Shown here: one piece after another, positions 1 to 11,955 of the stretch
Position numbering within the stretch: the first letter of the stretch is position 1
Layout of the letters: every line of letters starts with the position of its first letter
NCBI GenBank assembly: GCA_017550895.1
Contig: JAFZNN010000236.1
Location: 1,232-65,231 of the forward strand
From: Clostridia bacterium
Lineage (GTDB): Bacteria > Bacillota > Clostridia > Oscillospirales > Acutalibacteraceae
Direction of reading: 5' to 3'
DNA: 64,000 nt
Translations under genes and position numbers: made by a program
Notes under the pieces: model-generated
What the model was told of the DNA's origin: nothing
Database searches by the model: none
Seen by the model: only the letters and a program-made list of their open reading frames with translations

Positions 1-88
1 TTACGACCCCGACGGCGCGTTTCTCGGTCTGGGCGAATCGGACGGCGGGGAGCTGCTCGCGGTCAGACGCGTCTTTCAGGATCAATAA
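1..88 (+). CDS. 3' end of a CDS truncated by the window edge, possibly the TruB C-terminus
   Basis: The frame from nt 2 reads YDPDGAFLGLGESDGGELLAVRRVFQDQ* (TAA 86-88), resembling TruB C-terminal tails; too short to be sure. Confidence 0.4.
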   Translation, partial: YDPDGAFLGLGESDGGELLAVRRVFQDQ

Positions 89-102
89 ATGCATACGTTT
101 TC

Positions 103-135
103 AAGCTGCACGCTCCGTGCAGCTTTTCTTTTTTT
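103..135 (+). terminator. intrinsic terminator
   Basis: AAGCTGCAC-GCTCC-GTGCAGCTT followed by TTCTTTTTTT. Confidence 0.85.
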
Positions 136-145
136 GCGTCAAAAC

Positions 146-211
146 TGAAAATCATTCTCAAATTACTTGACAAACGGCGCCTTCTGCGCTAAAATTGATA
201 ACGCTTTTCAA
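146..211 (+). promoter_or_regulatory. sigma70 promoter of the fur-family operon with two Fur-type 7-1-7 boxes
   Basis: TTGACA(167-172)-17-TAAAAT(190-195); boxes TGAAAAT-C-ATTCTCA (146-160) and TGATAAC-G-CTTTTCA (196-210) resemble the Fur consensus TGATAAT-N-ATTATCA. Confidence 0.75.
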
Positions 212-225
212 ATTGGAGGTGCAAT

Positions 226-675
226 ATGGAAAAATCGAACTATAAAACCAAGCAGAACACGGCGCTGCTGGACTATCTGCGCACCGTGCCGGGCAAGCAT
301 GTGACGGTCAGCGACATCTGCAGCCACTTTGCGGCCTGCGGCGAGGCGATCAGCACAGCGACGGTCTACCGCCGGCTGGAGCGCATGGTGGACGACGGCG
401 TCGTCAACAAATACACCCTTGACCCGGGCAGCCCCGCCTGCTTCGAATATGTGCCCGCGCAGGATCACGGGGCCGCGGTCTGCTATCACTGCAAATGCGA
501 GCAATGCGGCCGGCTGATCCATCTGCATTGCGAAGAGGTGCGCGAAATCGGCGAGCACCTGCGCACGCACCACGCCTTTGTGCTCGATCCGCGGCGCACC
601 GTCTTCTACGGCCTGTGCGCCGACTGCGCAGCGCAATCGAACGCGGCCGCACAACAACCTGCATCGGAGGTCTGA
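226..675 (+). CDS. Fur/Zur-family metal-responsive transcriptional regulator
   Basis: GGAGG RBS; ATVYRRLERMVDDG helix-turn-helix; HCKCEQC and LCADC Zn motifs. Confidence 0.9.
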   Translation: MEKSNYKTKQNTALLDYLRTVPGKHVTVSDICSHFAACGEAISTATVYRRLERMVDDGVVNKYTLDPGSPACFEYVPAQDHGAAVCYHCKCEQCGRLIHLHCEEVREIGEHLRTHHAFVLDPRRTVFYGLCADCAAQSNAAAQQPASEV

Positions 676-677
676 TC

Positions 678-1382
678 ATGGCACAACTGATTTGCCGGGA
701 TCTCGCGCTCGGCTATGACGGCGGCGCGATCCTGGAGCATCTGAATTTTGAAGTGAACGCCGGCGAGTATCTTTGCATCCTCGGCGAAAACGGCTCGGGC
801 AAGAGCACGCTCATGCGCACGCTCCTCGGCCTGCAGCCCCCGCTCAGCGGCGAGATCCGCACGGGCGACGGTCTGGCGCACAATGAGATCGGCTATCTGC
901 CGCAGCAGACGGTGGTGCAGCGTGATTTTCCCGCCTCCGTCTGGGAAATCGTGCTCTCCGGCTGCCAGGGCGGCTGCGGCATGCGGCCGTTCTATACGAA
1001 AGAGGAAAAAGCGCGCGCCGCCGAGGCGATGGAAACGCTCAGCATCACGCCGCTGACGAAGCGCTGCTACCGGGAGCTTTCCGGCGGGCAGCAGCAGCGG
1101 GTGCTGCTCGCGCGCGCACTCTGCGCCACCCGCAAGCTCCTGCTGCTGGACGAGCCCGTGGCCGGACTGGATCCCCGGGTCACGCAGGAACTCTATGCCC
1201 TGATCCGCAAGCTCCACGCGCGCGGCATCACCATCATCATGATCTCGCACGATCTGCACGCGGCGCTGGAGGATGCGGACCACATCCTGCATATCGGCAG
1301 CACCGTGTTTTTCGGCACGAAGGCCGATTACCTGCAGAGTGACTGCTATCGCGGCTTTCTGAAGGGAGGCGACGCGCAATGA
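678..1382 (+). CDS. znuC: Zn/Mn ABC transporter ATP-binding protein (ZnuC-like)
   Basis: Walker A GENGSGKST, LSGGQQQR signature, LLLDEP; ATG at 678 after GGAGG. Confidence 0.85.
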   Translation: MAQLICRDLALGYDGGAILEHLNFEVNAGEYLCILGENGSGKSTLMRTLLGLQPPLSGEIRTGDGLAHNEIGYLPQQTVVQRDFPASVWEIVLSGCQGGCGMRPFYTKEEKARAAEAMETLSITPLTKRCYRELSGGQQQRVLLARALCATRKLLLLDEPVAGLDPRVTQELYALIRKLHARGITIIMISHDLHAALEDADHILHIGSTVFFGTKADYLQSDCYRGFLKGGDAQ

Positions 1383-2218
1383 CGCTGCTCGAGTATCTGC
1401 AATATCCGTTTGTGCGCTATGCGCTGATCGTCGGCGTGCTGATCGCGCTGTGCTCCTCCCTGCTGGGCGTGACGCTCGTGCTCAAGCGCTTCTCCTTCAT
1501 CGGCGACGGTCTGAGCCACGTCGCCTTCGGCGGTCTTGCGATCGCGGCCGTGATGAACCTGACAAATGAAATGCCGCTCGTGCTCGCCGTGACGGTCGTG
1601 AGCGCCGTCCTGCTGCTGCGCACGGGGCAGAACGCCAAAATCAAAGGCGACGCCGCCATCGCGATGATCTCCGTGGGCGCGCTGGCCATCGGCTATCTGC
1701 TGATGAACCTGTTCTCAACCTCCTCCAACCTCTCCGGCGACGTGTGCACCACGCTCTTCGGCTCCACCTCCATCCTGACGCTGACCAGGTCGGAGGTCTG
1801 GCTGAGCATCGTGCTTTCCGTGCTGGTGGTCGCCATCTTCATTTTCTTCTATCACAAAATTTTCGCCATCACCTTTGACGAAAGCTTTGCCAAGGCGACC
1901 GGCACGCACACCGGCCTTTACAACCTGCTGATCGCGATTGTGATCGCGGTGATCATCGTGCTTGCCATGAACCTGGTCGGCTCGCTCCTGATCTCGGCGC
2001 TGGTGATCTTCCCCGCGCTCTCCGCGATGCGGCTGTTCAAGAGCTTCAAGGCCGTCACGGTCTGCGCCGCGGTTTTCTCCGTGGTCTGCACCGTCACGGG
2101 TCTGCTGGTCTCCGTCATGTCCGGCACGCCGGTCGGCTCCACGATCGTCGCGGTCGACCTGGCCGCCTTCCTGCTTTGCTGGCTGGTCGGCAAGCTGACC
2201 GCAGGCAGAGCGGCCTGA
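1379..2218 (+). CDS. znuB: Zn/Mn ABC transporter permease (ZnuB-like)
   Basis: GDGLSHVAFGG and GSLLISAL motifs of ABC-3 permeases; ATGA overlap with the ATPase gene. Confidence 0.85.
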   Translation: MTLLEYLQYPFVRYALIVGVLIALCSSLLGVTLVLKRFSFIGDGLSHVAFGGLAIAAVMNLTNEMPLVLAVTVVSAVLLLRTGQNAKIKGDAAIAMISVGALAIGYLLMNLFSTSSNLSGDVCTTLFGSTSILTLTRSEVWLSIVLSVLVVAIFIFFYHKIFAITFDESFAKATGTHTGLYNLLIAIVIAVIIVLAMNLVGSLLISALVIFPALSAMRLFKSFKAVTVCAAVFSVVCTVTGLLVSVMSGTPVGSTIVAVDLAAFLLCWLVGKLTAGRAA

Positions 2219-2235
2219 CGAAGAAAAAACAGAAA

Positions 2236-2303
2236 AATGGCGTGCTGCCGAATGCAATCCGGTCCTTTCCGGATGACTGCGCATTCTGCAGCACGCTGTT
2301 TTC
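2236..2303. terminator. long hairpin terminator after the metal ABC operon
   Basis: AAAAATGGCGTGCTGC...GCAGCACGCTGTTTT with inner stems GAATGC/GCATTC and ATCCGG/CCGGAT. Confidence 0.65.
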
Positions 2304-2311
2304 ATTCTGGG

Positions 2312-2349
2312 TGATAATCATTGACTAGATCAAGCAGATGTGCTATAGT
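2312..2349 (+). promoter_or_regulatory. extended -10 promoter overlapped by a Fur-like box
   Basis: TTGACT(2321-2326)-17-TATAGT(2344-2349) with TG at 2341-2342; TGATAAT-C-ATTGACT at 2312-2326. Confidence 0.7.
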
Positions 2350-2355
2350 AATACT

Positions 2356-2422
2356 GGAACTGGGAGAGTTAGTAGAGCTTAGCTTGAAACCTTTGGGCGA
2401 GAAGCCACCCGGTTCTTTTTTT
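2356..2422 (+). ncRNA. candidate small regulatory RNA (family not recognised)
   Basis: Own promoter; no ATG-started ORF; closing stem GAACTGGG(2357-2364)/CCCGGTTC(2408-2415) followed by a T-run; no downstream gene on the same strand. Confidence 0.55.
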
Positions 2423-2495
2423 CTTTGCACTATACATTGTCGGCGCTGATCGCGTTGGTTTTGCGGATCGTCGTTGAGCGGAACCGGGCGCGCCG

Positions 2496-3116
2496 TTATC
2501 TGGAAATCCGCCGTTTGCCCAGATCGAGCAGGCTGCCCACGGCGATCGCGCCGATGACCGTGATCACGGTCTCAATCAGCATATAAGCGCCGTTATACGT
2601 CAGCGAATAAAGGATCACGGCCTTGATCGCGCTGCTCGGCGCATATCCGCTCCAGACCGTGACGCCGCTGATGAAATGGCAGGTAAAGCGCAGCAGGCAG
2701 ACGATCAGGCTGCCGATCGCCAGCGCCGGCACCTGCCGGGCGGCGAAGGTGTCTCTGTTTTCGAACGCCTTTTTCAGCATACCGCCCATGCCCAGCACGC
2801 CGTATGCGATCAGATAATCAAACAGCGCGACCATCAGCATCGCGCCAACGCCGGTCACATAAGAGAAATTCTTCAGCCCCATGATCAGCTCGAAAATCGC
2901 GAGCACCAGCGCCGCGGGGATCCCTGCCTTCAGGCCGTGGCGATAGCTGATGATGATGATCGGCACCTGGCCGAAAATCGTAAAGCCGCCGCCGTAGGCC
3001 CACGGCCAGGGGATCATCTCCGACACCGCGAACAGCGCGATCGACAGCGCGATCATGACTGCGCTTTCGGCGAGCACCTGCGTGGTGCTGACGGCGATTC
3101 CTGTTTTGTTTTTCAT
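2496..3116 (-). CDS. thiT: ECF-type thiamine transporter S component
   Basis: LAESAVMIAL..WAYGGGFTIFGQVP..RHGLKAG membrane protein directly downstream of a TPP riboswitch. Confidence 0.88.
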   Translation of the reverse strand: MKNKTGIAVSTTQVLAESAVMIALSIALFAVSEMIPWPWAYGGGFTIFGQVPIIIISYRHGLKAGIPAALVLAIFELIMGLKNFSYVTGVGAMLMVALFDYLIAYGVLGMGGMLKKAFENRDTFAARQVPALAIGSLIVCLLRFTCHFISGVTVWSGYAPSSAIKAVILYSLTYNGAYMLIETVITVIGAIAVGSLLDLGKRRISR

Positions 3117-3156
3117 TGTTCGTTCTCCTTCCTTCCGCTATGCGGAGATCATACTG

Positions 3157-3206
3157 TAAAAAATGCGCCCGACCGTGCAGATTTCCTGACCGTCGGGCGT
3201 TTTTTG
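3157..3206 (-). terminator. expression-platform terminator of the TPP riboswitch
   Basis: Minus strand CGCCCGACGGT...ACGGTCGGGCG followed by CATTTTTT. Confidence 0.75.
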
Positions 3207-3212
3207 CCGCTT

Positions 3213-3290
3213 GTTTCCTACGCCCGCATTACCGGGATCAGGTTCCGGGGTATTATCTCAGCCGAACGGATTCCGTTCAGCACCCCCTGT
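3213..3290 (-). ncRNA. TPP (THI-box) riboswitch
   Basis: Minus strand GGGGTGC...CTGAGA..ATACCC.GGAACCTGATCCCGGTAATGCGGGCGTAGGAA matches the TPP aptamer consensus. Confidence 0.93.
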
Positions 3291-3305
3291 TCAGTTTTTC
3301 GCTTC

Positions 3306-4739
3306 TCAGTCTTCCGCCGTCGCCGATCGGTTTGCCTTCCCCTCCGGCGTATCGCGGTAAAACTGCGTTTTCGGATTCGGATGCTTTGTGGTGTTCCACA
3401 GCTCGTCCGCCACCGGCTGCCAGGCCTTCGCGAAGGCGTCGCAGCGCGCGCAGAGCGTTTCCGCGCTCTCCGGCTCGATCAGATCCGTGGATTTCGCGCC
3501 GGTCTGCGCAATGATCGCCCGCAGGATCTCCGGATTCTCCAGCATCGGGCAGGGCCGCAGATGGTTGTCGTTGAACGGCTGGTTGTGATAATAGGCCTGG
3601 AACAGCGGATTCTTCAGCCCCTCCAGCAGCGTATGCGTGCGGATATTCGCGTCGGAATAATGCACGAACACGCAGGGCTCCATATCGCCCGAAGAGTTGA
3701 TGTGGAAATAATTCCGCCCGGCCGCGATGCAGCCGCCGACATATTCGCCGTCATTCTGGAAATCCATCACAAAGAGCGGCTGCCCGGTCTTGCCGTCGCG
3801 CACCTTGCGCAGCCATTTATACATGAACACCCGCTGCTCGGGCGTCGGGATCAGTTCTGGCACCGCCCCGCCGCCGACCGGCATATAGTTGAAGTAAAAC
3901 GCGAACCGCGCGCCCTTCTCCACAAGCAGACGCAGGAACGCGTCGCCTGTGACGTCGGGGATGTTCCTGCTCGTGTAGCAGACGGAAACGCCGTAGAAGA
4001 TGCCGTTGCGCTGCAGCAGCTCCATCGCCTTGATCGCGCGGCTGTAAGCGCCCGCGCCGCGGCGGTCGTCCGTGCTCTCCTGCGTGCCCTCGATGCTGAT
4101 CGCCAGCGTCAGGTTGCCCACCGCCTTCATGCGGGAGCAGAAGCTCTGATCGATCAGCGTGGCGTTGGTGTAGGCCAGGAAGGCGCAGTCCGGATGCTCG
4201 GCGCAAAGGGTCAGAATATCGTCCTTGCGCACAAGCGGCTCGCCGCCGGTCATCATATAGACATGCGTGCCCAGCGCCGTGCCCTGATCGACGATGCTGC
4301 GCATCTCATCGAGCGAAAGATTCGACTGGTGGCCGTATTCCGCCGACCAGCAGCCCTTGCAATGCATATTGCACGCGCTCGTGGGATCCATCAGCAGCAG
4401 GAACGGGATATTGCAGTGATATTTTTCGCGATTGGCGCGCACGGCCTTCGTGCCGTTGACGCCGGCGCCCAGGCCGACGGCCAGAAAAAGTTTTTTGATA
4501 TAGGCCGGGTCGCTCTCACGCACGATCCGCTCCGCATAATCGCGCCAGACGCTTTCCGGATCCTGCATGGCGCTGCGGAAGGCGTCGAAGTTCTTCGCGG
4601 GGAAGGTGCTGCCGCTGAGCTTCTGCGCCAGATTGATCAGCTGCACCAGGCGCGCGGCCGGCGCTTTGCGGATATAGGCATACAGCGCATCGAGCGTCAC
4701 GGACGCCGCTGCGCGCTGCAGACGTTCTTTTGTGGTCAC
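3306..4739 (-). CDS. radical SAM protein with SPASM/twitch-type C-terminus
   Basis: CNMHCKGC (CxxxCxxC), TGGEP, GCIAAG..HINSSGDMEPC; GTG start at 4739 after GGAGGTG. Confidence 0.88.
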   Translation of the reverse strand: MTTKERLQRAAASVTLDALYAYIRKAPAARLVQLINLAQKLSGSTFPAKNFDAFRSAMQDPESVWRDYAERIVRESDPAYIKKLFLAVGLGAGVNGTKAVRANREKYHCNIPFLLLMDPTSACNMHCKGCWSAEYGHQSNLSLDEMRSIVDQGTALGTHVYMMTGGEPLVRKDDILTLCAEHPDCAFLAYTNATLIDQSFCSRMKAVGNLTLAISIEGTQESTDDRRGAGAYSRAIKAMELLQRNGIFYGVSVCYTSRNIPDVTGDAFLRLLVEKGARFAFYFNYMPVGGGAVPELIPTPEQRVFMYKWLRKVRDGKTGQPLFVMDFQNDGEYVGGCIAAGRNYFHINSSGDMEPCVFVHYSDANIRTHTLLEGLKNPLFQAYYHNQPFNDNHLRPCPMLENPEILRAIIAQTGAKSTDLIEPESAETLCARCDAFAKAWQPVADELWNTTKHPNPKTQFYRDTPEGKANRSATAED

Positions 4740-4926
4740 GGCAATCACCTCCCGGATCGAGATATACGGATAGAGTATAGCACAATCTGCCGCCCTTGTC
4801 CACATATTTTTAAAAAAACAGGAGATATTTCTTGCTTTCCTCCTGAAATCAGCGTATAGTAAAGGAGGAAAACAAGCAGGGCGCGCCGCACTTCGCGCAA
4901 CGCCGCCCGAGGAATGAGGGAAAACT

Positions 4927-6630
4927 GTGAAGGAAAAATTCATGCGCGGCTCCCACGTGATCGGGCTGGTCGTGCGCATCATTATCGCCGCGGGCATCAT
5001 CGGACTGATTGTCTGGAAGTTCGACACGCTGCGCAATATCGATATTCCCGCGCTTGTGGCCGCCAAGGAAAACGTCTGGATCGCCATTCTGAGCATCTGG
5101 GGCGTTTATCTGCTCAAGGCCGTCACCTTCGTCGTGCCCGCTTCCGTGGTCTATATCGCCGTCGGCATGGCGTTCCGCCCGGTCATCGCGATCCTGGTCA
5201 ACAGCGCCGGCATCCTGCTGGAGGTCTGCGCGACTTATCTGCTCGGCATCCTGCTCGGCGGCCCGTATGTCACCCACAAGCTCGAGCAGGTGCGCTGGGG
5301 CGAAAAAATCCTTGCGCTGCAGAAGCGCGGCAAGCTCTCCGCCATCTTCCTGCTGCGGCTGATCCCGGTGTTCCCGATCGACATCACCGGCCTGCTGCTC
5401 GGCGCGGTGCGCATGCGCTTCCTGCCCTATCTCGGCCTTTCCCTTGCCGGCATCCTGCCGCGCGTGATCCTGTTCACGCTGCTCGGCGACCGGATTTATG
5501 ATTTGATCCCGCGGCAGCTGCTCACCCTGATCGCCGCCGTGCTCGTGGCGCTGGCGCTGGTCGTCTGGGTCGTGCGCTACGCGCTCAAATCCAAAAAGAA
5601 GGAGCGGAATTTCGGCAAATCCGCCTACACGCCGCTGTGTGAAAGCGATCGCAGCGTCATTTATGACACCGCGCTCGGCCAGGAGGCGGACGGCGCCGCT
5701 GCGCTCGCGCTGCTGGGCGTCCTGACGGAGCAATACGGCAACCGCCTGCTCTGCATCGGCAACAGCACCTCCGATCCCTATGCGAACGGCGCAATCCGCG
5801 CAATTGCCGAATACGCCCGGCTCGGCGCGCCGCAGCTCGCGTGGTACACCGGCGAGAGCCTGCTTGAGGACGGCTCCGTCTACAATCAGAAACTGACGAA
5901 AAAATACTGCAAATACGAAAACAGCGCCGTCGGCGCGGAAGACGCGGAGGACGTCTATCTCAAGCAGCTGCGCCGCGTGCAGGAGGACGGCGTCACCTTC
6001 ATTGTGACCGGGCCGCTGAATATTATCCGCCGCCTGCTGGAGGCGGATGAGGCGCTCTTCAACAAGAAGGTGCATTCCATCGTGCTGCAGGCCGGCGCCT
6101 ACCCGAAGGGGAAGGAATTCCACGCGCAATGCGACCCCGAATCGCTGGCCTATGTGCTTGCGCACTTCAAAAAGCGCATCGTCTGCGTGGGCTCGGAGGT
6201 CGGCAAAAACGTGCAGACCGGCTATCTGGATCCCCCGGCGGACGCCGAAACGAATCCGGTATTTGACGCCTACCGCCTCTCGACCGGCCGCAAGCAGCCG
6301 CCGTTCATGCAGCAGGCATGGGCGCTCACGGCGGTGCAGTATGCCTTTGAGGGCGACGGCGATTATTACCAGCTCTCCAAGCCCGTCAATATCCATGTGG
6401 AAGCGGACGGCGAAGTCCGCACGGAAAAGAATAAATACGCAAAGCAGCATTATCTGATCCGCACAGCGGATACGGCCGACCTGGCGGCGCATCTCAACGC
6501 GCTGCTGGCGCAATGCGGCAAGCCCGTCGCCGCGCCGCAAGCGGACGAAGCGCAGACGGAGGCGCCTGCCGCACCCGCGATTGCGGCGGAAGCGGCGCAG
6601 CCCGCGCAGGCGCCGTCGATCGACGGCTGA
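4927..6630 (+). CDS. DedA/TVP38 (VTT) membrane domain fused to a nucleoside-hydrolase-like domain
   Basis: N-half has FVVPAS..LLRLIPVFPIDIT (VTT); C-half has VIYDTALG, FIVTGPLNII, EFHAQCDP resembling IU-nucleoside hydrolases. Confidence 0.7.
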   Translation: MKEKFMRGSHVIGLVVRIIIAAGIIGLIVWKFDTLRNIDIPALVAAKENVWIAILSIWGVYLLKAVTFVVPASVVYIAVGMAFRPVIAILVNSAGILLEVCATYLLGILLGGPYVTHKLEQVRWGEKILALQKRGKLSAIFLLRLIPVFPIDITGLLLGAVRMRFLPYLGLSLAGILPRVILFTLLGDRIYDLIPRQLLTLIAAVLVALALVVWVVRYALKSKKKERNFGKSAYTPLCESDRSVIYDTALGQEADGAAALALLGVLTEQYGNRLLCIGNSTSDPYANGAIRAIAEYARLGAPQLAWYTGESLLEDGSVYNQKLTKKYCKYENSAVGAEDAEDVYLKQLRRVQEDGVTFIVTGPLNIIRRLLEADEALFNKKVHSIVLQAGAYPKGKEFHAQCDPESLAYVLAHFKKRIVCVGSEVGKNVQTGYLDPPADAETNPVFDAYRLSTGRKQPPFMQQAWALTAVQYAFEGDGDYYQLSKPVNIHVEADGEVRTEKNKYAKQHYLIRTADTADLAAHLNALLAQCGKPVAAPQADEAQTEAPAAPAIAAEAAQPAQAPSIDG

Positions 6631-6649
6631 CAATCCGGAATCATACGCA

Positions 6650-6707
6650 TCAAAAAAGATGGACTTCGGCAGGATTTCATTCTCCTGCTGAAGCCCATCC
6701 TTTTTAT
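6650..6707. terminator. bidirectional terminator
   Basis: AAAAAAGATGGACTTCGGCAGGA-loop-TCCTGCTGAAGCCCATCCTTTTT between convergent genes. Confidence 0.8.
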
Positions 6708-6744
6708 TGTTGAATTGCCGCCCGCCGCCGTTGCCCGCGCCCCG

Positions 6745-7740
6745 TCACGCCGAAACGATCGGGGATTTCAGCGCGTAGGTCGCCGCGCACGCGGTTTCTC
6801 CGTCCGGTTCATATTTCCATGTGCTGCGGTAGAAATCCCGGCCGCGGATCGCGACCTCGTTTTCATAGACCTCCACCACAAACCCGCCGCCCGTGTCGGG
6901 GACGGGCTGATGGCCGTCGTCGCCGCCGAGCTCCGTCAGCCGCGGCACATCGATTTCCGGAAAGCCGTTGTTCGTGCGGAACGAGCGCAGCGACAGCGGC
7001 GTGTGATAGTGGCCCACAAAGCAGAACAGATCGTGCGTGCGGTTGTATTCCGCCAGCATCGCTGCCAGCCGGCCGGAATGCGCGCCGGTTGCATCCGTCA
7101 TGCAGGAGATCGGAAAATGCGAAAACACAAACGCGGGTTTTCCGCTTGCGGCGGCCTGCGCGAGCACGTCTGCCAGCCACGCAAGCTGCGTTTCGCTCAT
7201 CTGCATTTCATAAACCGCCTGCGCCTCCATGCCCAGCACGATGCAGTAGAAGCCGTTGATCACCTCGTAATAATACGGATGCTCCAGGCGTCTGCCGAAA
7301 AAGGCGGCGGTGAAATTGAACCAGCGGTTCTGGATTTTATCAAAATCGCCCTCGCCGTTGCCGCAGTCGTGATTGCCCATGACCGGCAGCACGGTTTCGC
7401 CCCGCAGCATGCGCGCGACCGTGCCGTGAAAGATCAGATTCTCCGGCAGCTGCCCGTTCATGGTGCTGTCGCCGAGAAACAGCACGGCGTCGTTGCCGCT
7501 CCGGTTCCGCTTCACATCCTGCAGCGATTTGACGAAGATCTGATAGCACGGCAGGTTGTTGGTTTCGATGTGAACGTCCGAAAGCACGGTGAAGTGCAGC
7601 CTGCACGCCTCCGGCTGCCGGAGATCGTATTCCGTGCCGCCGGGGCCGACGCCGGCAATCAGCAGCATGACCGCGACCACCGCCGCAGCGCAGACGCGCA
7701 GAAACACGGACCTGACGCCCGCGCCGATAACATTGTTCAT
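6745..7740 (-). CDS. calcineurin-like metallophosphoesterase with N-terminal signal or anchor
   Basis: SDVH, LGD, GNHD, SHFP and GHYH motifs; ATG at 7740 after GGAGG. Confidence 0.85.
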   Translation of the reverse strand: MNNVIGAGVRSVFLRVCAAAVVAVMLLIAGVGPGGTEYDLRQPEACRLHFTVLSDVHIETNNLPCYQIFVKSLQDVKRNRSGNDAVLFLGDSTMNGQLPENLIFHGTVARMLRGETVLPVMGNHDCGNGEGDFDKIQNRWFNFTAAFFGRRLEHPYYYEVINGFYCIVLGMEAQAVYEMQMSETQLAWLADVLAQAAASGKPAFVFSHFPISCMTDATGAHSGRLAAMLAEYNRTHDLFCFVGHYHTPLSLRSFRTNNGFPEIDVPRLTELGGDDGHQPVPDTGGGFVVEVYENEVAIRGRDFYRSTWKYEPDGETACAATYALKSPIVSA

Positions 7741-7921
7741 AAAGCACCCTCCTTGCATCCGGATCGCTTCATTTTATCACAACCGCGCGAAAAATACAAG
7801 CCGCAACAAGTGGGTTCGGCAGAAACAAAAAGATGCTCTGATCTGATCCTGCAACAAACAATCCGACCCGGGCACAGCCAGATTGCTGCGTCCGGGTCGT
7901 TCGTTTCGTTTTTGCTGCGCG

Positions 7922-8293
7922 TCAGATCTCCGCCATCCAGAGCCCGTGCAGGTTGCAGTAGGCATACACAGCCGTCGGCTTGTCCCCCGCGAGGGCGAAA
8001 ACGGCCGTCGGCGCGCCGGTGGGATCCAGATCCTTTTTCTGGAAGCCCTGCGCCGTTTCCAGCACGATCCACGCAATGTGGTGCGCCTCGATCATCGGAT
8101 GCGCCGCCGCGCCGACCGTGACCGTCACCTTGTCTCCCTCGACCGCGGCGACCGGCACGTGCTTCTCCACGGACGCGTCCACGGAGCCGGGCACGATCTC
8201 CTGCATTTTCTGCCCGCAGCACATCACGGGCACCCCGTGATTCTCCATATAGGCAACGATGTTGCCGCAATGCGCGCACTGATAAAACTTCAT
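7922..8293 (-). CDS. dfx: desulfoferrodoxin / superoxide reductase
   Basis: CAHCGN..CCG desulforedoxin domain; EKHVP, HPM..H and CNLHGLW SOR ligands. Confidence 0.93.
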   Translation of the reverse strand: MKFYQCAHCGNIVAYMENHGVPVMCCGQKMQEIVPGSVDASVEKHVPVAAVEGDKVTVTVGAAAHPMIEAHHIAWIVLETAQGFQKKDLDPTGAPTAVFALAGDKPTAVYAYCNLHGLWMAEI

Positions 8294-8436
8294 TCCGAAA
8301 CCCTCCTGTCGTTATTTTTTTCATTATAGCATATCCGCCCGGAGAAAATCAAGTCCGGCCCGGCGGGTTTCCGCGCGCCATCAAAATCGCGCGGAAAGGC
8401 CGCCCGAAACCCGCTGAAAATTTTTAAAAAAAGGGC

Positions 8437-8465
8437 TTGACGCAAGCGGCGTTTTATGATATAGT
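8437..8465 (+). promoter_or_regulatory. tRNA operon promoter
   Basis: TTGACG-17-TATAGT with extended -10 TG. Confidence 0.8.
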
Positions 8466-8480
8466 TATTTAGCATTCCGT

Positions 8481-8556
8481 GCTGGTGTAGCTCAGTTGGT
8501 AGAGCAGCTGATTTGTAATCAGCAGGTCGGGGGTTCGAGTCCGTCCACCAGCTCCA
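8481..8556 (+). tRNA. tRNA-Thr(TGT)
   Basis: 76-nt cloverleaf; anticodon arm CTGAT-T-TGT-A-ATCAG; GTTCGAG T-loop; encoded CCA. Confidence 0.97.
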
Positions 8557-8587
8557 TGGCGGCTTTCGACCCCTTAAAATAGAATAT

Positions 8588-8672
8588 GGGAGAGTTCCCG
8601 AGCGGCCAAAGGGGGCAGACTGTAAATCTGTTGTCACTGACTTCGGTGGTTCGAATCCACCCTCTCCCACCA
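8588..8672 (+). tRNA. tRNA-Tyr(GTA)
   Basis: 85 nt; acceptor stem GGGAGAG/CTCTCCC+ACCA; CAGA-CT-GTA-AA-TCTG anticodon arm; long variable arm. Confidence 0.97.
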
Positions 8673-8674
8673 TG

Positions 8675-8704
8675 AAAAAACCTCGTCTTCGGACGAGGTT
8701 TTTT
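8675..8704. terminator. terminator at the head of repeat copy A
   Basis: AAAAAACCTCGTC-TTCG-GACGAGGTTTTTT. Confidence 0.85.
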
Positions 8705-8707
8705 CAA

Positions 8708-8884
8708 CGATGTGTTCCGCTCTCGCGGAACGTGATGTTTGCTTCGCAAGTGATGTGCCCTTCGGGCGTGATGTGTGCCTGCGGCACGTGTGCGGAACAC
8801 ATTACATCACTGCGACCAAAGGGAGCAACATCATTTTTGACGCTTGCGTCAAAAACATCACTTGCGCCGCAGGTGCATGCTTCA
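8708..8884. repeat. modular TGATGT/ACATCA+hairpin (REP/BIME-like) repeat, copy A
   Basis: Four (T/C)GATGT units then four (A/G)C(A/T)TCA units, each separated by a short hairpin. Confidence 0.85.
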
Positions 8885-8962
8885 CAAAAAGTGCCTTAAA
8901 GCCGCGTGCAACGGCGCGATTTCATTATTGATTACAGTTGCCATTCCGTTCGCGCGGCACAG

Positions 8963-8992
8963 AAAACGACGTGTTTCGACACGTCGTTTTTT
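8963..8992. terminator. terminator-like hairpin
   Basis: AAAACGACGTGT-TTCG-ACACGTCGTTTTTT. Confidence 0.8.
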
Positions 8993-8993
8993 C

Positions 8994-9095
8994 AATGAAG
9001 CCGACCCTTGCGGGGCGAATAAAGGATTGAAGGCGCTGCACGAACGAAGACGCTCTTTCGGAGCTGATTGTTTCTGTGGGCGGCTTCGCTTCATT
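8994..9095. repeat. inverted-repeat-bounded ~100-bp element (element D)
   Basis: Ends AATGAAGC/GCTTCATT; sub-terminal GAAGCCGACCC/GGGCGGCTTC. Confidence 0.55.
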
Positions 9096-9270
9096 CCAAC
9101 GTTTGATTTTTTGAGAAAACAGTATCATTCGCGTTCCATCCCTGTGTCCCGGCTTTTGTTCTGCATTTTATATTTAATAATAATCTTTCATTGCGACAAA
9201 ATATTTATATTGTTTAAAACAATTCGATGTGATATAATAACATTGCACTAAAAACAGGAGGGCAAACTCA

Positions 9271-10677
9271 ATGAAAAAAGCAACCAGAAAAGCGCTTGCA
9301 TTGACGCTCGCACTTGTGATGGCATTTTCCTGCCTTGCGTTAAATTCTTTTGCCGCTACAAAGGATAACATTACGTTCAAGGTGCAGGGCAAAGGCGGTT
9401 ATCTTGCCATCGGCGACAGTATCGGCATGGGCTGCGGTTCCGACGGTTACTATCTGGGGCATTACCATGGCGACTACCAATACCGCGACTGCGAGGGCTC
9501 CTATGTGACACAAATCGCAAACGCAGTCGGCTGCGACATTCCCACACACAGCATCACAGACCAGAATTCCAACTTCTATCCGTTCTGCTATCCCGGTATG
9601 ACCACTGCCGTCGCTCTTGACCTGTACGGCGTTGACGACGGGTATTCGGATTATGAGCTTGACTACCCATACTACCACGCAATGCTTACTTATTTCGGCA
9701 CGCCTGCTTCTCTTCCCTCAACGCGCGATGAAGATCCCCGCTATGAAGCAGAGGGCGAAGTGCAGCACTATGTGGAAGGCAACTGCGGAAAGTGCGGCGA
9801 CATCATTGAGCTTACAAAGAATGCGGAGCTTATCACGATAGAACTGGGCATGTGCGATATTTTCTACCGCGCTTACCGTATTCTTTCCGAGGGTACGCTA
9901 CTTGCAGATTTAAAGCTTGATGCTTCCATCGCAAGCAAAGCCGGAGATATTCTCACAAAGGCAATCAGCCTGATCAAAGACGGCTTCAACAACTGGAAAT
10001 CACAGTATCCACTTCTTCTGAAGACCGTGACAGAATTAAATCCCAATGCCACGATCCTTATCTGCGGCAGCTTTAACCTGATCGACGATATAACGCTTCT
10101 TGACGAAACCGTTTTCCCTCTCGGCGATATCATGACCAATATTACTGAGCAGATGAACATTCTGTATGAGCGGTGGGCAAAAGAGTACGGCGTTACTTAT
10201 GTTGATATTCAGAACTGTGAAACATACGCCACGGAAAACAACATGGCGCTTCTCGGCGATTATATGAATGATTCACTTACGTCCTCTCATCCCAGCCAGA
10301 CGGGTCACGACTATATCGCAAGACAGTTTCTTGCCGCGCTTGCACCCGTTGAAGAGCATCACAACATCTATGTTGACCTTGTAAGAAATACAAGTGTAAG
10401 CAAGGTTCTTATCAACGGCATACCCGTAACCAGCTACACGGTTAACGGCTACGACCTCAACGTTGACTACACCGGCAAGCTCGCAAAAAGCATGACGATC
10501 TTTATCGACAACGGCAACGGCACCACCCAGATGCAGTATTACGATCTGGAATACAAGGATGGCGGATATGTCGTTCATCGTGTTTACCAGAACAACGATT
10601 ATCGCGGACTCTTTACCCGTCCGTTCAAGCTTCTCAAAAAGCTGTTTGAACTCATCAAGGGACTTTTCAGCAAATAA
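9271..10677 (+). CDS. secreted SGNH/GDSL hydrolase-family protein
   Basis: Signal peptide MKKATRKALALTLAL..; YLAIGDSIG and DSLTSSHPSQTGH motifs; TTGTTT-17-TATAAT promoter; visibly less GC-rich than the flanks. Confidence 0.75.
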   Translation: MKKATRKALALTLALVMAFSCLALNSFAATKDNITFKVQGKGGYLAIGDSIGMGCGSDGYYLGHYHGDYQYRDCEGSYVTQIANAVGCDIPTHSITDQNSNFYPFCYPGMTTAVALDLYGVDDGYSDYELDYPYYHAMLTYFGTPASLPSTRDEDPRYEAEGEVQHYVEGNCGKCGDIIELTKNAELITIELGMCDIFYRAYRILSEGTLLADLKLDASIASKAGDILTKAISLIKDGFNNWKSQYPLLLKTVTELNPNATILICGSFNLIDDITLLDETVFPLGDIMTNITEQMNILYERWAKEYGVTYVDIQNCETYATENNMALLGDYMNDSLTSSHPSQTGHDYIARQFLAALAPVEEHHNIYVDLVRNTSVSKVLINGIPVTSYTVNGYDLNVDYTGKLAKSMTIFIDNGNGTTQMQYYDLEYKDGGYVVHRVYQNNDYRGLFTRPFKLLKKLFELIKGLFSK

Positions 10678-10735
10678 GCAAGAATCATAGATCAATCCAG
10701 AAACCAAGTGGATCTTTTTCGTAGGGAACAGCCAC

Positions 10736-10944
10736 AAAAAGCCTCGTCTTCGGACGAGGTTTTTTCAATGATGTGTTCCGCTATGCGGAACATGATGTTT
10801 GCTTCGCAAATGATGTGTCCTGCGCGCATGATGTGTGCCTGCGGCACATGAAGCGGAACGCATCGCATCATTTTGCGGCGAAGCCGCAATACATCATTGT
10901 GAGCAACGCGAACAACTTCATTTGCACCGCAGGCGCATACTTCA
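10736..10944. repeat. terminator plus modular TGATGT/ACATCA repeat, copy B
   Basis: AAAAAGCCTCGTCTTCGGACGAGGTTTTTTCAA then the element at 10769-10944, homologous to copy A. Confidence 0.88.
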
Positions 10945-11008
10945 CTATTCATGTAATTAAACATTCTCGTATAATCAAGATAGTTGCCAATCCGCTCGCG
11001 CATCACAG

Positions 11009-11190
11009 AAAAAGCCTCGTCTTTCGACGAGGTTTTTTCAATGATGTGTTCCGCTATGCGGAACATGATGTTTGCTTCGCAAATGATGTGCGCTGCGCGC
11101 ATGATGTGTGCCTGCGGCACATGAAGCGAAACGCATCGCATCATTGCAACCAGCGGAAGCAACATCATTTGCGCCATCGGCGCATACTTG
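11009..11190. repeat. terminator plus modular TGATGT/ACATCA repeat, copy C
   Basis: Left arm nearly identical to copy B; right arm one hairpin module shorter. Confidence 0.88.
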
Positions 11191-11327
11191 CCTATCATAT
11201 AATTAAACATCATTATTCTGCTGTTCTTCAGAACAAGGCAGCCGCATTCAACCAAAAGGTGTTTTTCTCTTCCTCATCGTTGATGCTTTTTGAACCTCCG
11301 GCATTGCCCGGGGGACACTGATCGACA

Positions 11328-11362
11328 GAAAAGCCGGGCAGTCATCAGCTGTCCGGCTTTTT
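11328..11362. terminator. terminator (GNAT gene, possibly bidirectional)
   Basis: AAAAGCCGGGCAG-TCATCAG-CTGTCCGGCTTTT. Confidence 0.8.
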
Positions 11363-11385: not shown

Positions 11386-11955
11386 TCAGGTCTGAAAGCG
11401 ATACCGCGTCCGGTCTGCGGCGCCGGTCCGGATCCATTTGTCCGTCAGCGTCGGGAGGGCGAATCCCCAGTTTTCCGGCACGGCGTGCGCGATGTGGCGA
11501 AAGCCGTTCTTTTTCAGCACACGCGCAGACGCCTGATTCTCCAGCATCGTGCTTGCCGTGATGATCTCGACGTCCGTTTCCTCCAAAAGATAGCGGACCA
11601 TCAGGCCGAGCGTTTCCGTCGCGATCCCCTGCCCCCAGTACTCCTGCAGCAGCCGGTACCCGACGCTCGCTTTGTGAAGCGGGGCGCGATAGCCGTAGAT
11701 TTCCGCCAGGCCGCAGAACACATTTTCCAGATACACGCCGAGGATCAGGGACGTGCGCAGGCACTCGTCATACAAATGCCGGACGACGTCTTCTTTCTCC
11801 TCATATTTCAGTTCAAACAGAAAGGTCGGGAGATACCGGTACACCTCGGCATTTTCCGTCAGCGCGCGCAGATGCTGCGCGTCGGACAGCGGCACCCGGC
11901 GCAGCGCAACGCGCTCGCCTGTCAGGCAGGGGATCTCCGAAAACAGCTTTTTCAC
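11386..11955 (-). CDS. RimJ/RimL-type GNAT N-acetyltransferase
   Basis: VGYRLLQEYWGQGIATE and ENQASARVLKKNGF motifs; GTG start. Confidence 0.88.
   Translation of the reverse strand: MKKLFSEIPCLTGERVALRRVPLSDAQHLRALTENAEVYRYLPTFLFELKYEEKEDVVRHLYDECLRTSLILGVYLENVFCGLAEIYGYRAPLHKASVGYRLLQEYWGQGIATETLGLMVRYLLEETDVEIITASTMLENQASARVLKKNGFRHIAHAVPENWGFALPTLTDKWIRTGAADRTRYRFQT

Follow-up and report, generated by a model that had tools for sequence, protein, structure and literature searches.

This analysis concerns three repeat blocks, elements A, B and C, which stand behind a tRNA-Thr/tRNA-Tyr operon and around an SGNH hydrolase gene in a 64-kb stretch of DNA from one genome (the window; all coordinates refer to the whole 64,000-nt stretch). 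The module is a Gut-1-type unit of terminator, hairpin array and promoter, which is tied to tRNA operons and is locally triplicated here. As far as can be judged from sequence and predicted pairing, the blocks are a UGAUGU-linker variant of the Gut-1 superfamily (Rfam RF01706). Gut-1 was known as an uncharacterised motif; its UGAUGU-linker form behind tRNA terminators is new. An earlier note on this DNA had taken the blocks for a cassette-like gene-capture hotspot. The element is more general than a local hotspot, being widespread, and gene capture is not supported by anything found.

The element in the window and its kinship with Gut-1

The string TTTTTTCAAYGA occurs four times in the window (8699, 8987, 10760 and 11033), with 0.03 copies expected from shuffles. 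Each copy forms the T-tail of an intrinsic-terminator hairpin and is followed by CAAYGA, which bears out the claim of the earlier note that all four elements it recognised (A, D, B and C) begin behind such a hairpin. Two of its further observations proved correct as well: the stem CCTCGTC/GACGAGG is common to three terminators (8681-8698, 10742-10759 and 11015-11032), the fourth stem being CGACGTG..CACGTCG, and a 31-nt linker occurs twice (8936-8966 and 10982-11012) with 27/31 identical positions and a chance expectation of 0. Elements A (8704-8885), B (10765-10947) and C (11038-11193) are homologous, whereas D has in common with them only the TTTTTTCAATGA start and the closing inverted repeat. 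B and C are 96% identical over 140 nt, terminator included, and repeat with a period of 273 nt, and A matches B and C with 89-96% identity across the shared 5' segments. The features of the region are as follows.

8437-8465, + strand: promoter-like TTGACG-17-TATAGT ahead of tRNA-Thr
8481-8556, + strand: tRNA-Thr (TGT), first gene of the tRNA operon (ARAGORN; Rfam tRNA, 67.8 bits)
8588-8672, + strand: tRNA-Tyr (GTA), last gene of the operon, CCA encoded (ARAGORN; Rfam)
8675-8704, + strand: terminator T1, A6 + CCTCGTC-TTCG-GACGAGG + T6 (sequence; inverted repeat)
8704-8885, + strand: element A (Gut-1 RF01706, 37.0 bits over 8705-8779)
8886-8935, + strand: AT-rich spacer after A (sequence reading)
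8923-8928, + strand: weak -10-like CATTAT, 7 nt ahead of linker copy 1 (sequence reading)
8936-8966, + strand: linker copy 1, beginning where the outward -10 predicts +1 and extending into T2
8963-8992, + strand: terminator T2, AAAA + CGACGTG-TTTCGA-CACGTCG + T6 (sequence; repeat search)
8993-9097, + strand: element D, a short inverted-repeat element, CAATGAAGCCGACCC ... GGGCGGCTTCGCTTCATT
9200-10680, + strand: SGNH/GDSL hydrolase unit with its own promoter (Pfam PF13472; homology limits)
9271-10677, + strand: SGNH open reading frame (ORF), with the extended -10 TGTGATATAAT about 40 nt upstream of the ATG
10736-10765, + strand: terminator T3, stem as in T1 (repeat pair, 96%)
10765-10947, + strand: element B (Gut-1, 25.9 bits)
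10970-10975, + strand: TATAAT -10 hexamer after B, 6 nt ahead of linker copy 2 (sequence)
10982-11012, + strand: linker copy 2
11009-11038, + strand: terminator T4, CCTCGTC-TTTC-GACGAGG
11038-11193, + strand: element C, shorter than B by one 3' hairpin unit (Gut-1, 31.3 bits)
11198-11203, + strand: TATAAT after C (sequence)
11328-11362, strand not assigned: strong terminator hairpin of 15 pairs that closes the region
11386-11955, minus strand: convergent GNAT gene (Pfam)

Terminator T1 begins 3 nt past the CCA of tRNA-Tyr and looks bidirectional; its stem was also found behind other tRNAs in other metagenome-assembled genomes (MAGs), and a stem resembling that of T2 stands behind tRNA-Val in locus L079. 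The closing hairpin is placed between element C and the GNAT gene. Element D, with spacers AATGAAG / AATAAAG / ATTGAAG, does not fold better than its shuffles (z -1.3) and has no homologue in the other loci fetched, and on these grounds it was rejected as a full member of the family. A D-like start was seen once, at the contig end of an RNA run. Its sequence suggests that D is a decayed or different-linker relative of A, B and C, a remote copy.

The three homologous blocks are copies, of about 180 nt, of one modular element. Its 5' half opens with a T-run and CAAYGATGT and continues with four short hairpins, each trailed by RTGATGT. The centre repeats the 3' strand of hairpin 1 and adds CATC (GCGGAACACAT in A), and the 3' half holds three or four hairpins with ACATCAY, which is the 5' linker in reverse complement, between them. 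In A, the 5' half runs TCAACGATGT; H1 GTTCCGC/GCGGAAC; GTGATGT; H2 TTGC/GCAA; GTGATGT; H3 GCCC/GGGC; GTGATGT; H4 GTGCC/GGCAC, and the centre is followed by ACATCAC, H5 (with a tandem G.A), ACATCAT, H6, ACATCAC, H7 and GCTTCAC. The two halves are mirror images, and their symmetry is broken only by the centre, the tandem G.A of H5 and the loops. About one in four A-type copies has a 10-bp terminal inverted repeat, TCAATGATGT/ACATCATTGA; in the window, the copies close with GCTTCAC, ACTTCAC and ACTTGCC, i.e., their 3' repeat is degenerate. No target-site duplication was seen, the 5' flank being a T-run and the 3' flank A-rich or unrelated, with no direct repeat. Hairpin modules are shuffled between copies and tandem arrays occur. 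The element as a whole is a mosaic of short palindromic units, extragenic and located in 3' regions.

The Gut-1 motif was published in 2010 as seen only in human gut environmental sequences (PMC2864571), and Weinberg and colleagues rated it a likely RNA (PMC2864571). In the literature searched, this discovery paper (PMC2864571) is the sole text on Gut-1, and it gives no host, context or function. On the + strand, the Rfam model scores 37.0 bits for A, 31.3 for C and 25.9 for B, all under the gathering threshold of 50. The model is nevertheless aligned from end to end (1-77/77) with all three stems formed and the linker GUGAUGU in place of GUGAAAU, and relatives with the linker type of the window copies score 36-45 bits. 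Locus L103 holds a true Gut-1 hit of the GAAAU type (74.5 bits, and 51.2 on the other strand) that adjoins a GAUGU-type element. The same layout appears in the Gut-1 seed alignment once its flanks are included: the 3' end of a tRNA is followed by AGAAAAA, a terminator, a T-run and hairpins with GUGAUAU or GUGAAAU, and then by a centre and complementary AUAUCAC units. This genomic setting, in which a tRNA 3' end, a predicted terminator or both lie immediately upstream, is shared by the window and about 40 loci. From the end-to-end match below threshold, the layout of the seed flanks and the neighbour in L103 together, we infer that the window blocks are a linker variant of Gut-1. Like Gut-1, they begin with CAAUGA and line up short hairpins in tandem with a conserved 7-nt R-UGA-NNU linker; they differ in the linker itself, UGAUGU here and UGAAAU or UGAUAU in Gut-1. 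Moreover, the published model covers the first three hairpins only, whereas the element described here is longer and two-armed.

Linker subfamilies each have their own complementary 3' type (GAUGU/ACAUC, GAAAU/AUUUC and GAUAU/AUAUC) and co-occur within contigs. Other subfamilies (GUGAUAU, GUGAAAU and GUUAUAUU) were observed behind other tRNAs on the same contigs as GAUGU-type elements, namely at L005:2448-2700, L028 (minus strand, 478-740), L069:2757-3010 and L103. Since several of them share one contig, a single genome can hold several linker subfamilies.

In the public annotation, a 172-aa 'gene' without a Pfam family is called across B and C (10773-11321, + strand), and the same ORF region is called on the minus strand in L116 (7084-7602) and in L120/L121. 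As this ORF overlaps the hairpin array and lacks a Pfam family, it is very likely a spurious reading frame that arises from the repeats.

Position behind tRNA operons, outward promoter and downstream gene

Related elements were surveyed by a scan for the 5'-half pattern in a species-representative genome collection, and the element counts given from here on are those among the matches listed. The pattern matched at least 115 loci, with about 16 expected by chance. About 70-85 of these loci are real elements, nearly all in Oscillospirales MAGs from animal and human gut and from rumen, and several MAGs carry two or three copies. These relatives, too, start right after the T-run of a terminator. 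Orientation is defined by the asymmetric centre, which is recognisable in 68 elements; 38 of them lie directly behind a tRNA gene and its terminator, and every one is on the strand of that tRNA (38:0). The tie between repeats and terminators that had been proposed from the window therefore extends to the whole family.

Between 40 and 44 elements start 28-36 nt past the CCA end of a tRNA, with the terminator alone in between, and the tRNAs involved represent at least 14 amino-acid identities. The same element, but with a TGAATGATGT start, follows nine more tRNA ends, and other linker subfamilies follow three more. In all tRNA-linked cases, the terminator stands between the CCA end and the element. 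What appeared to be a second class of hits was the reverse complement, with the tRNA on the other strand. In tRNA operons without an element, terminators also begin 1-2 nt after the CCA, which makes the tight spacing a local style and not a mark of insertion. Only two pattern matches were obtained among 2.9 million viral contigs, and a phage origin was rejected on this basis.

The terminators that accompany the element recur. Identical stems are found behind different tRNAs in different MAGs, with GCACTTGC 11 times, CCTCGTC eight times and GCACGC eight times. Furthermore, many copies that do not follow a tRNA are preceded by approximately 27 nt that resemble a degenerate segment of a tRNA from the T-loop to the CCA. 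Both observations suggest that the spreading unit includes the terminator and sometimes the tRNA end; candidate mechanisms of dispersal are ectopic recombination, strand-specific insertion and an RNA intermediate. Breaks of contigs at elements are frequent, and the DNA depth over elements is about 10 times that of the flanks. Across 71 element-associated terminators (L001-L115 and the window), the stems GACCAA and GCCTAACGC were seen to recur too, with variable loops of mostly GNRA type. Where a tRNA operon has no element, terminators look more varied and their stems are longer.

Downstream of the array, 19 of 62 elements have an extended -10 (TGnTATAAT-like) on the + strand no more than 70 nt past the 3' end, most often at +22. 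On the other strand, the count is 2/62, and in random windows the frequency is 2.8%. Hence, a three-part junction of intrinsic terminator, hairpin array and outward promoter is recurrent after Oscillospirales tRNA operons. In many loci, only 20-25 nt separate the element from the + strand promoter and the gene behind it.

In the window, the 31-nt linker begins 6-7 nt past a -10-like hexamer in both copies (8923-8992 and 10970-11038). This leader is conserved (27/31), and the spacer that precedes it is not. By its layout, linker and next terminator would make up a promoter-leader-terminator unit of about 55 nt, possibly encoding a tiny RNA. A search for the linker elsewhere did not reproduce it in context, neither in the other fetched loci, from all of which it is absent, nor in metagenome contigs, where the 89 hits to its 19-nt core lay in environmental DNA rich in GC and none had the terminator or element behind it. 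As none of the 89 hits stands in context, they are regarded as chance matches. A decayed 3' end of a tRNA was also considered as the source of the linker, whose geometry is suitable; however, the similarity score of 8 lies within the shuffled null (6.8 ± 1.4), and the idea was dropped.

In about 22 loci, i.e., about a quarter, the element is followed by a gene for a protein of approximately 120 aa, a four-helix bundle that matches PF05635 (23S rRNA intervening sequence protein), TIGR02436 and PDB 2RLD, an entry deposited with five chains. The PF05635 family includes the accessory protein Avd of diversity-generating retroelements (DGRs) and the ORF of 23S rRNA intervening sequences. Loci with this gene are L019, L024, L027, L053 (for example L053:6457-6813, minus strand), L062, L075, L077, L101, L107 and others; in L002/L061, it comes immediately after the array's 5' half. 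Between species, the protein retains about 80-85% identity, and the sequence beyond the gene is different in every locus. According to prediction, the outward TGATATAAT promoter serves this gene. No PF05635 gene is present in the window. A role as a known defence component was rejected, there being no PADLOC hit.

Fold, strand and dispersal

For the element as such, we favour the view that the tRNA-sense strand folds as a functional single strand, slightly more probably as an RNA made by read-through, and that local duplication produced the pattern in the window; we would give this explanation an even chance of being right. The pairing data carry it. Despite widely differing sequences, 783 of 807 pairs in the 5'-half stems are Watson-Crick, as are 677 of about 775 in the second stem set. 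In an alignment of 39 sequences, the consensus structure is 95.7% paired (80.1% in shuffles) with a covariation of 0.383 (0.132 in shuffles, and at most 0.076 in controls with slid partners). The purine of RTGATGT covaries with the pyrimidine of ACATCAY, and an alternative helix from the element start to the centre is 94.6% paired. Compared with shuffles, the fold of element A reaches a z of -3.4 as RNA and -4.8 as DNA. The small hairpins have thus changed by compensation, and the covariation of stems and linker pairs supports a fold of the single strand. Base pairing also explains the matched 5' and 3' linker types more simply than would several co-evolving binding proteins. For the tRNA-sense strand and for RNA speak the fixed orientation, the strand-specific tandem G.A of H5 (71 A/G mismatches versus 3 C/T), the rating of Gut-1 as a likely RNA and the gut metatranscriptome contigs that cover elements and extend into the terminator and the tRNA end.

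In the favoured explanation, the tRNA-sense strand would work as a single strand in which pairing of the 5' with the 3' linkers builds a rod of 5-7-bp helices with side hairpins, effectively a series of stacked four-way junctions; the long-range helix of element start and centre would be an alternative state. We prefer, by a narrow choice, an RNA that arises from read-through of the tRNA terminator over a single-stranded DNA form. Such an RNA might act as an insulator or processing module between the very strong tRNA promoter and the next gene.

Several observations count against this explanation. G:T pairs are not commoner than A:C in the stems (21 and 14), and the corresponding strand test, G:U versus A:C, was abandoned as it gave no asymmetry; since the adjacent terminators likewise yield 4 and 4, the test does not discriminate. 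Triloops predominate in the array, with TNC loops in the 5' half and their complement, GNA, in the 3' half, and the adjacent terminators carry mostly GNRA or UUCG-type tetraloops. A constraint at the level of DNA or single-stranded DNA accounts better for these loops and the near two-fold symmetry than a typical RNA would. Since the element lacks its own promoter and stands behind a strong terminator, any + strand RNA depends on read-through. In addition, the evidence from RNA runs consists of unstranded contigs, which may include DNA, and the recurring terminator stems and T-loop-like remnants hint at a dispersal mechanism.

A second explanation is possible yet, in our view, rather unlikely: the elements would be non-autonomous mobile or mosaic repetitive DNA (BIME/REP-like, MITE-like or moved as single-stranded DNA), whose hairpins and 7-nt linkers are recognised by a trans-acting enzyme that inserts them strand-specifically behind terminator hairpins, with any RNA being incidental. 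The near two-fold symmetry, the 10-bp TCAATGATGT/ACATCATTGA repeat in a quarter of the A-type copies and the complementary triloop types of the two halves, which are of the DNA-stable kind (C-GNA-G), agree with it, and so does the missing G:U excess. Shuffled modules and tandem arrays, contig breaks and the tenfold DNA depth at elements, identical terminator stems behind different tRNAs and the T-loop-like remnants ahead of non-tRNA copies also speak for it. However, a target-site duplication was not seen, and none of the loci examined has a transposase or HUH gene linked to the element. Within one genome, copies have diverged with compensatory changes in their stems (A versus B, 85-89%), and the element is conserved across families; this looks like long-term selection on structure and not like recent bursts. 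An inverted-repeat transposase that works by ordinary double-strand cut-and-paste is excluded by the 38:0 orientation, and the near absence from viral contigs (two matches in 2.9 million) is a further point against mobility.

A more speculative explanation is one that we judge improbable. Here, the Gut-1 superfamily would be a strand-specific, terminator-seeking, non-autonomous element that moves as single-stranded DNA or via an RNA intermediate, with the PF05635 protein (Avd-like, pentameric) as a partner that binds the four to five linker-hairpin units; by taking up positions after the terminators of tRNA operons, and by bringing along a terminator hairpin and an outward promoter, it would make portable terminator-insulator-promoter junctions at which foreign genes such as the SGNH gene could settle. 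The 38:0 orientation, the recurring terminator stems, the T-loop-like remnants and the PF05635 link are all compatible with this idea.

The opposite strand was weighed as well. Minus-strand small-RNA genes could be transcribed from the AT-rich spacer toward the tRNA and be ended by a bidirectional terminator with its + strand A-run, and the resulting order of promoter, structured RNA and terminator would be classical. A conserved A5-7 run precedes nearly every terminator stem, for which reason the terminator should work on the minus strand too, and a weak minus-strand promoter match lies at 10990-10963. Nonetheless, this is the least probable of the explanations considered. No conserved minus-strand promoter was found (extended -10 in 2/62, versus 19/62 on the + strand), and the 20-25 nt between element and + strand promoter or gene are all the room there is in many loci. 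On that strand, the tandem G.A of H5 would turn into destabilising C/U mismatches, and element-free tRNA terminators have the same A-runs.

The SGNH gene and gene capture

As noted before, the SGNH gene is less GC-rich than its flanks, the GC content being 0.42-0.55 across 8.7-11.3 kb versus about 0.6 around it. It also lies between directly oriented copies of the element, its homologues occupy four different neighbourhoods elsewhere, i.e., the gene does relocate, and the genes downstream of elements vary widely between loci. All this would suit a cassette-like hotspot in which the blocks are recombination sites that bracket and exchange cargo. We nevertheless regard this explanation as very doubtful. 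The homologues (76-90% identity) come from four other genomes and differ in their neighbourhoods, elements flank none of them, and their homology to the window is limited to 9200-10680, which is the SGNH promoter and ORF and not the borders of the elements. Since homologues relocate without elements, the SGNH gene is a relocating accessory unit that moves without the blocks. Between the copies of other arrays there is no gene (three tandem copies in L053), or there are only PF05635 genes and pseudogenes (L099), and the element ends are, by reading, unlike attC core sites. The absence of a visible recombinase, already pointed out by the earlier note, was confirmed for window 1-18.3 kb (about 9 kb around): no recombinase or transposase is among the Pfam families recorded for all called genes there. 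Neither excised circles nor empty sites came to light, as no joint of the expected 273, 2060 or 2333 nt, from A x B or B x C recombination, was present in four DNA runs, for which only short Logan contigs were available.

Searches for identical proteins led back to the contig of the window itself and otherwise to L117 and to short contigs ending within the tRNAs. Relatives with an 87-89% identical Dfx (desulfoferrodoxin, encoded beside the tRNA operon) have contigs that end at tRNA-Tyr or in tRNA-Thr, and such stops at the tRNAs are a sign that the following sequence is repeated. L117 belongs to another sample; this contig matches window 1-8678 with 99.65% identity and then diverges: compared with window 8480-8678, L117:4079-4260 has a different Thr-Tyr spacer, a variant tRNA-Tyr and a plain terminator, and an SH3-domain gene is found there. 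The sample of L117 also holds window-type sequence. Either the sequence was replaced at strain level from the tRNAs onward, or the contig is an assembly chimera joined at tRNA-Thr; because of the latter possibility, L117 was not counted as an empty site.

Recombination between the repeats is another matter, and the earlier suggestion that they serve as recombination substrates stands, given the shuffled modules, the tandem arrays and the 273-nt tandem unit of B and C. In the favoured explanation, the copy after tRNA-Tyr (A) would have been duplicated along with its terminator, and B/C would be a recent tandem unit of 273 nt, made up of the array, a -10 hexamer, the 31-nt leader and a terminator. 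This unit most likely arose when repeated linkers and terminators recombined with one another, unequally or ectopically. The SGNH gene would then be a separate unit of promoter and ORF that came to lie inside the array by chance, and not the cargo of a dedicated capture machinery.

Three further observations were made. The AT-rich promoter of the SGNH gene, with TGTGATATAAT, is kept in three genomes (window 9200-9270, L122 and L126) despite different neighbours, and it is of the same extended -10 type as the promoters behind hairpin arrays. Upstream of the homologue in L122 (4200-4700), the candidate TGGTGGAGATGACGGGAGTCGAACCC resembles a tmRNA 3' end on the opposite strand; by this resemblance, the site suggests another hotspot linked to a stable RNA beside a relocated SGNH gene. 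Elsewhere in the window, a thiamine pyrophosphate (TPP) riboswitch-like match (3197-3297, minus strand; 50.3 bits, with a gathering score of 54.3) sits upstream of a PF09515 gene (Thia_YuaJ thiamine transporter) on the same contig.

Comparison with known systems

Gut-1, an orphan Rfam motif since 2010, gains hosts by this work, the Oscillospirales, together with a rule for position and orientation, a two-armed architecture with complementary linkers, an outward promoter and a recurrent PF05635 neighbour. The bare motif is thereby turned into testable hypotheses (read-through insulator RNA, protein scaffold, terminator-targeting repeat). In practice, the elements break metagenome assemblies at tRNA loci and generate spurious ORF calls.

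Among known repeats, the REP/BIME sequences of enterobacteria are alike in that short palindromic units with conserved short linkers are extragenic and stand at the 3' ends of transcription units, vary in module number and order, and hold their stems by compensatory change. However, REPs share one hairpin sequence per genome, alternate in orientation and are linked to RAYT transposases, whereas the hairpins described here differ within one element and the whole element keeps one fixed orientation; no RAYT (Y1 HUH) gene was seen in the 8-kb loci. The Correia elements (CREE/NEMIS) of Neisseria and the BOX elements of Streptococcus pneumoniae are likewise small non-coding repeats with inverted ends and long hairpins, which can supply outward promoters or terminators, and BOX is modular (boxA-(boxB)n-boxC). 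Correia elements have 26-bp inverted repeats, a TA duplication and either orientation and occur genome-wide. The present elements show no duplication, lie almost only behind terminators, mostly those of tRNA operons, and have a fixed orientation.

With integron attC sites and cassettes, the array shares a variable sequence with conserved structure, strand-specific folded sites with complementary 7-nt ends, and a location beside promoterless or accessory genes. In contrast to integrons, it has no integrase and no R''/L''-L'/R' core sites, and it carries 4-5 linker pairs per element instead of two. By reading, an attC-type site (RYYYAAC ... GTTRRRY) is not present, the element ends being T-run+CAAYGATGT and ACWTCAY. 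The SGNH 'cargo', moreover, has its own promoter and occurs without such sites in other genomes.

Two systems are tied to stable-RNA genes in a comparable way. The RNAs from tRNA 3' external transcribed spacers (3'ETS), such as 3'ETS-leuZ of E. coli, are also non-coding and joined to the 3' end of a tRNA operon, and a very strong promoter can provide a stable RNA; they are located upstream of the operon terminator, however, while the arrays follow it. In the 23S rRNA intervening sequences with a PF05635 ORF (Leptospira, Coxiella), a PF05635/TIGR02436 gene is tied to an inverted-repeat element at a stable-RNA gene, as in our loci. There, the element lies inside the 23S rRNA; here, it is found behind tRNA operons, and the gene has its own promoter.

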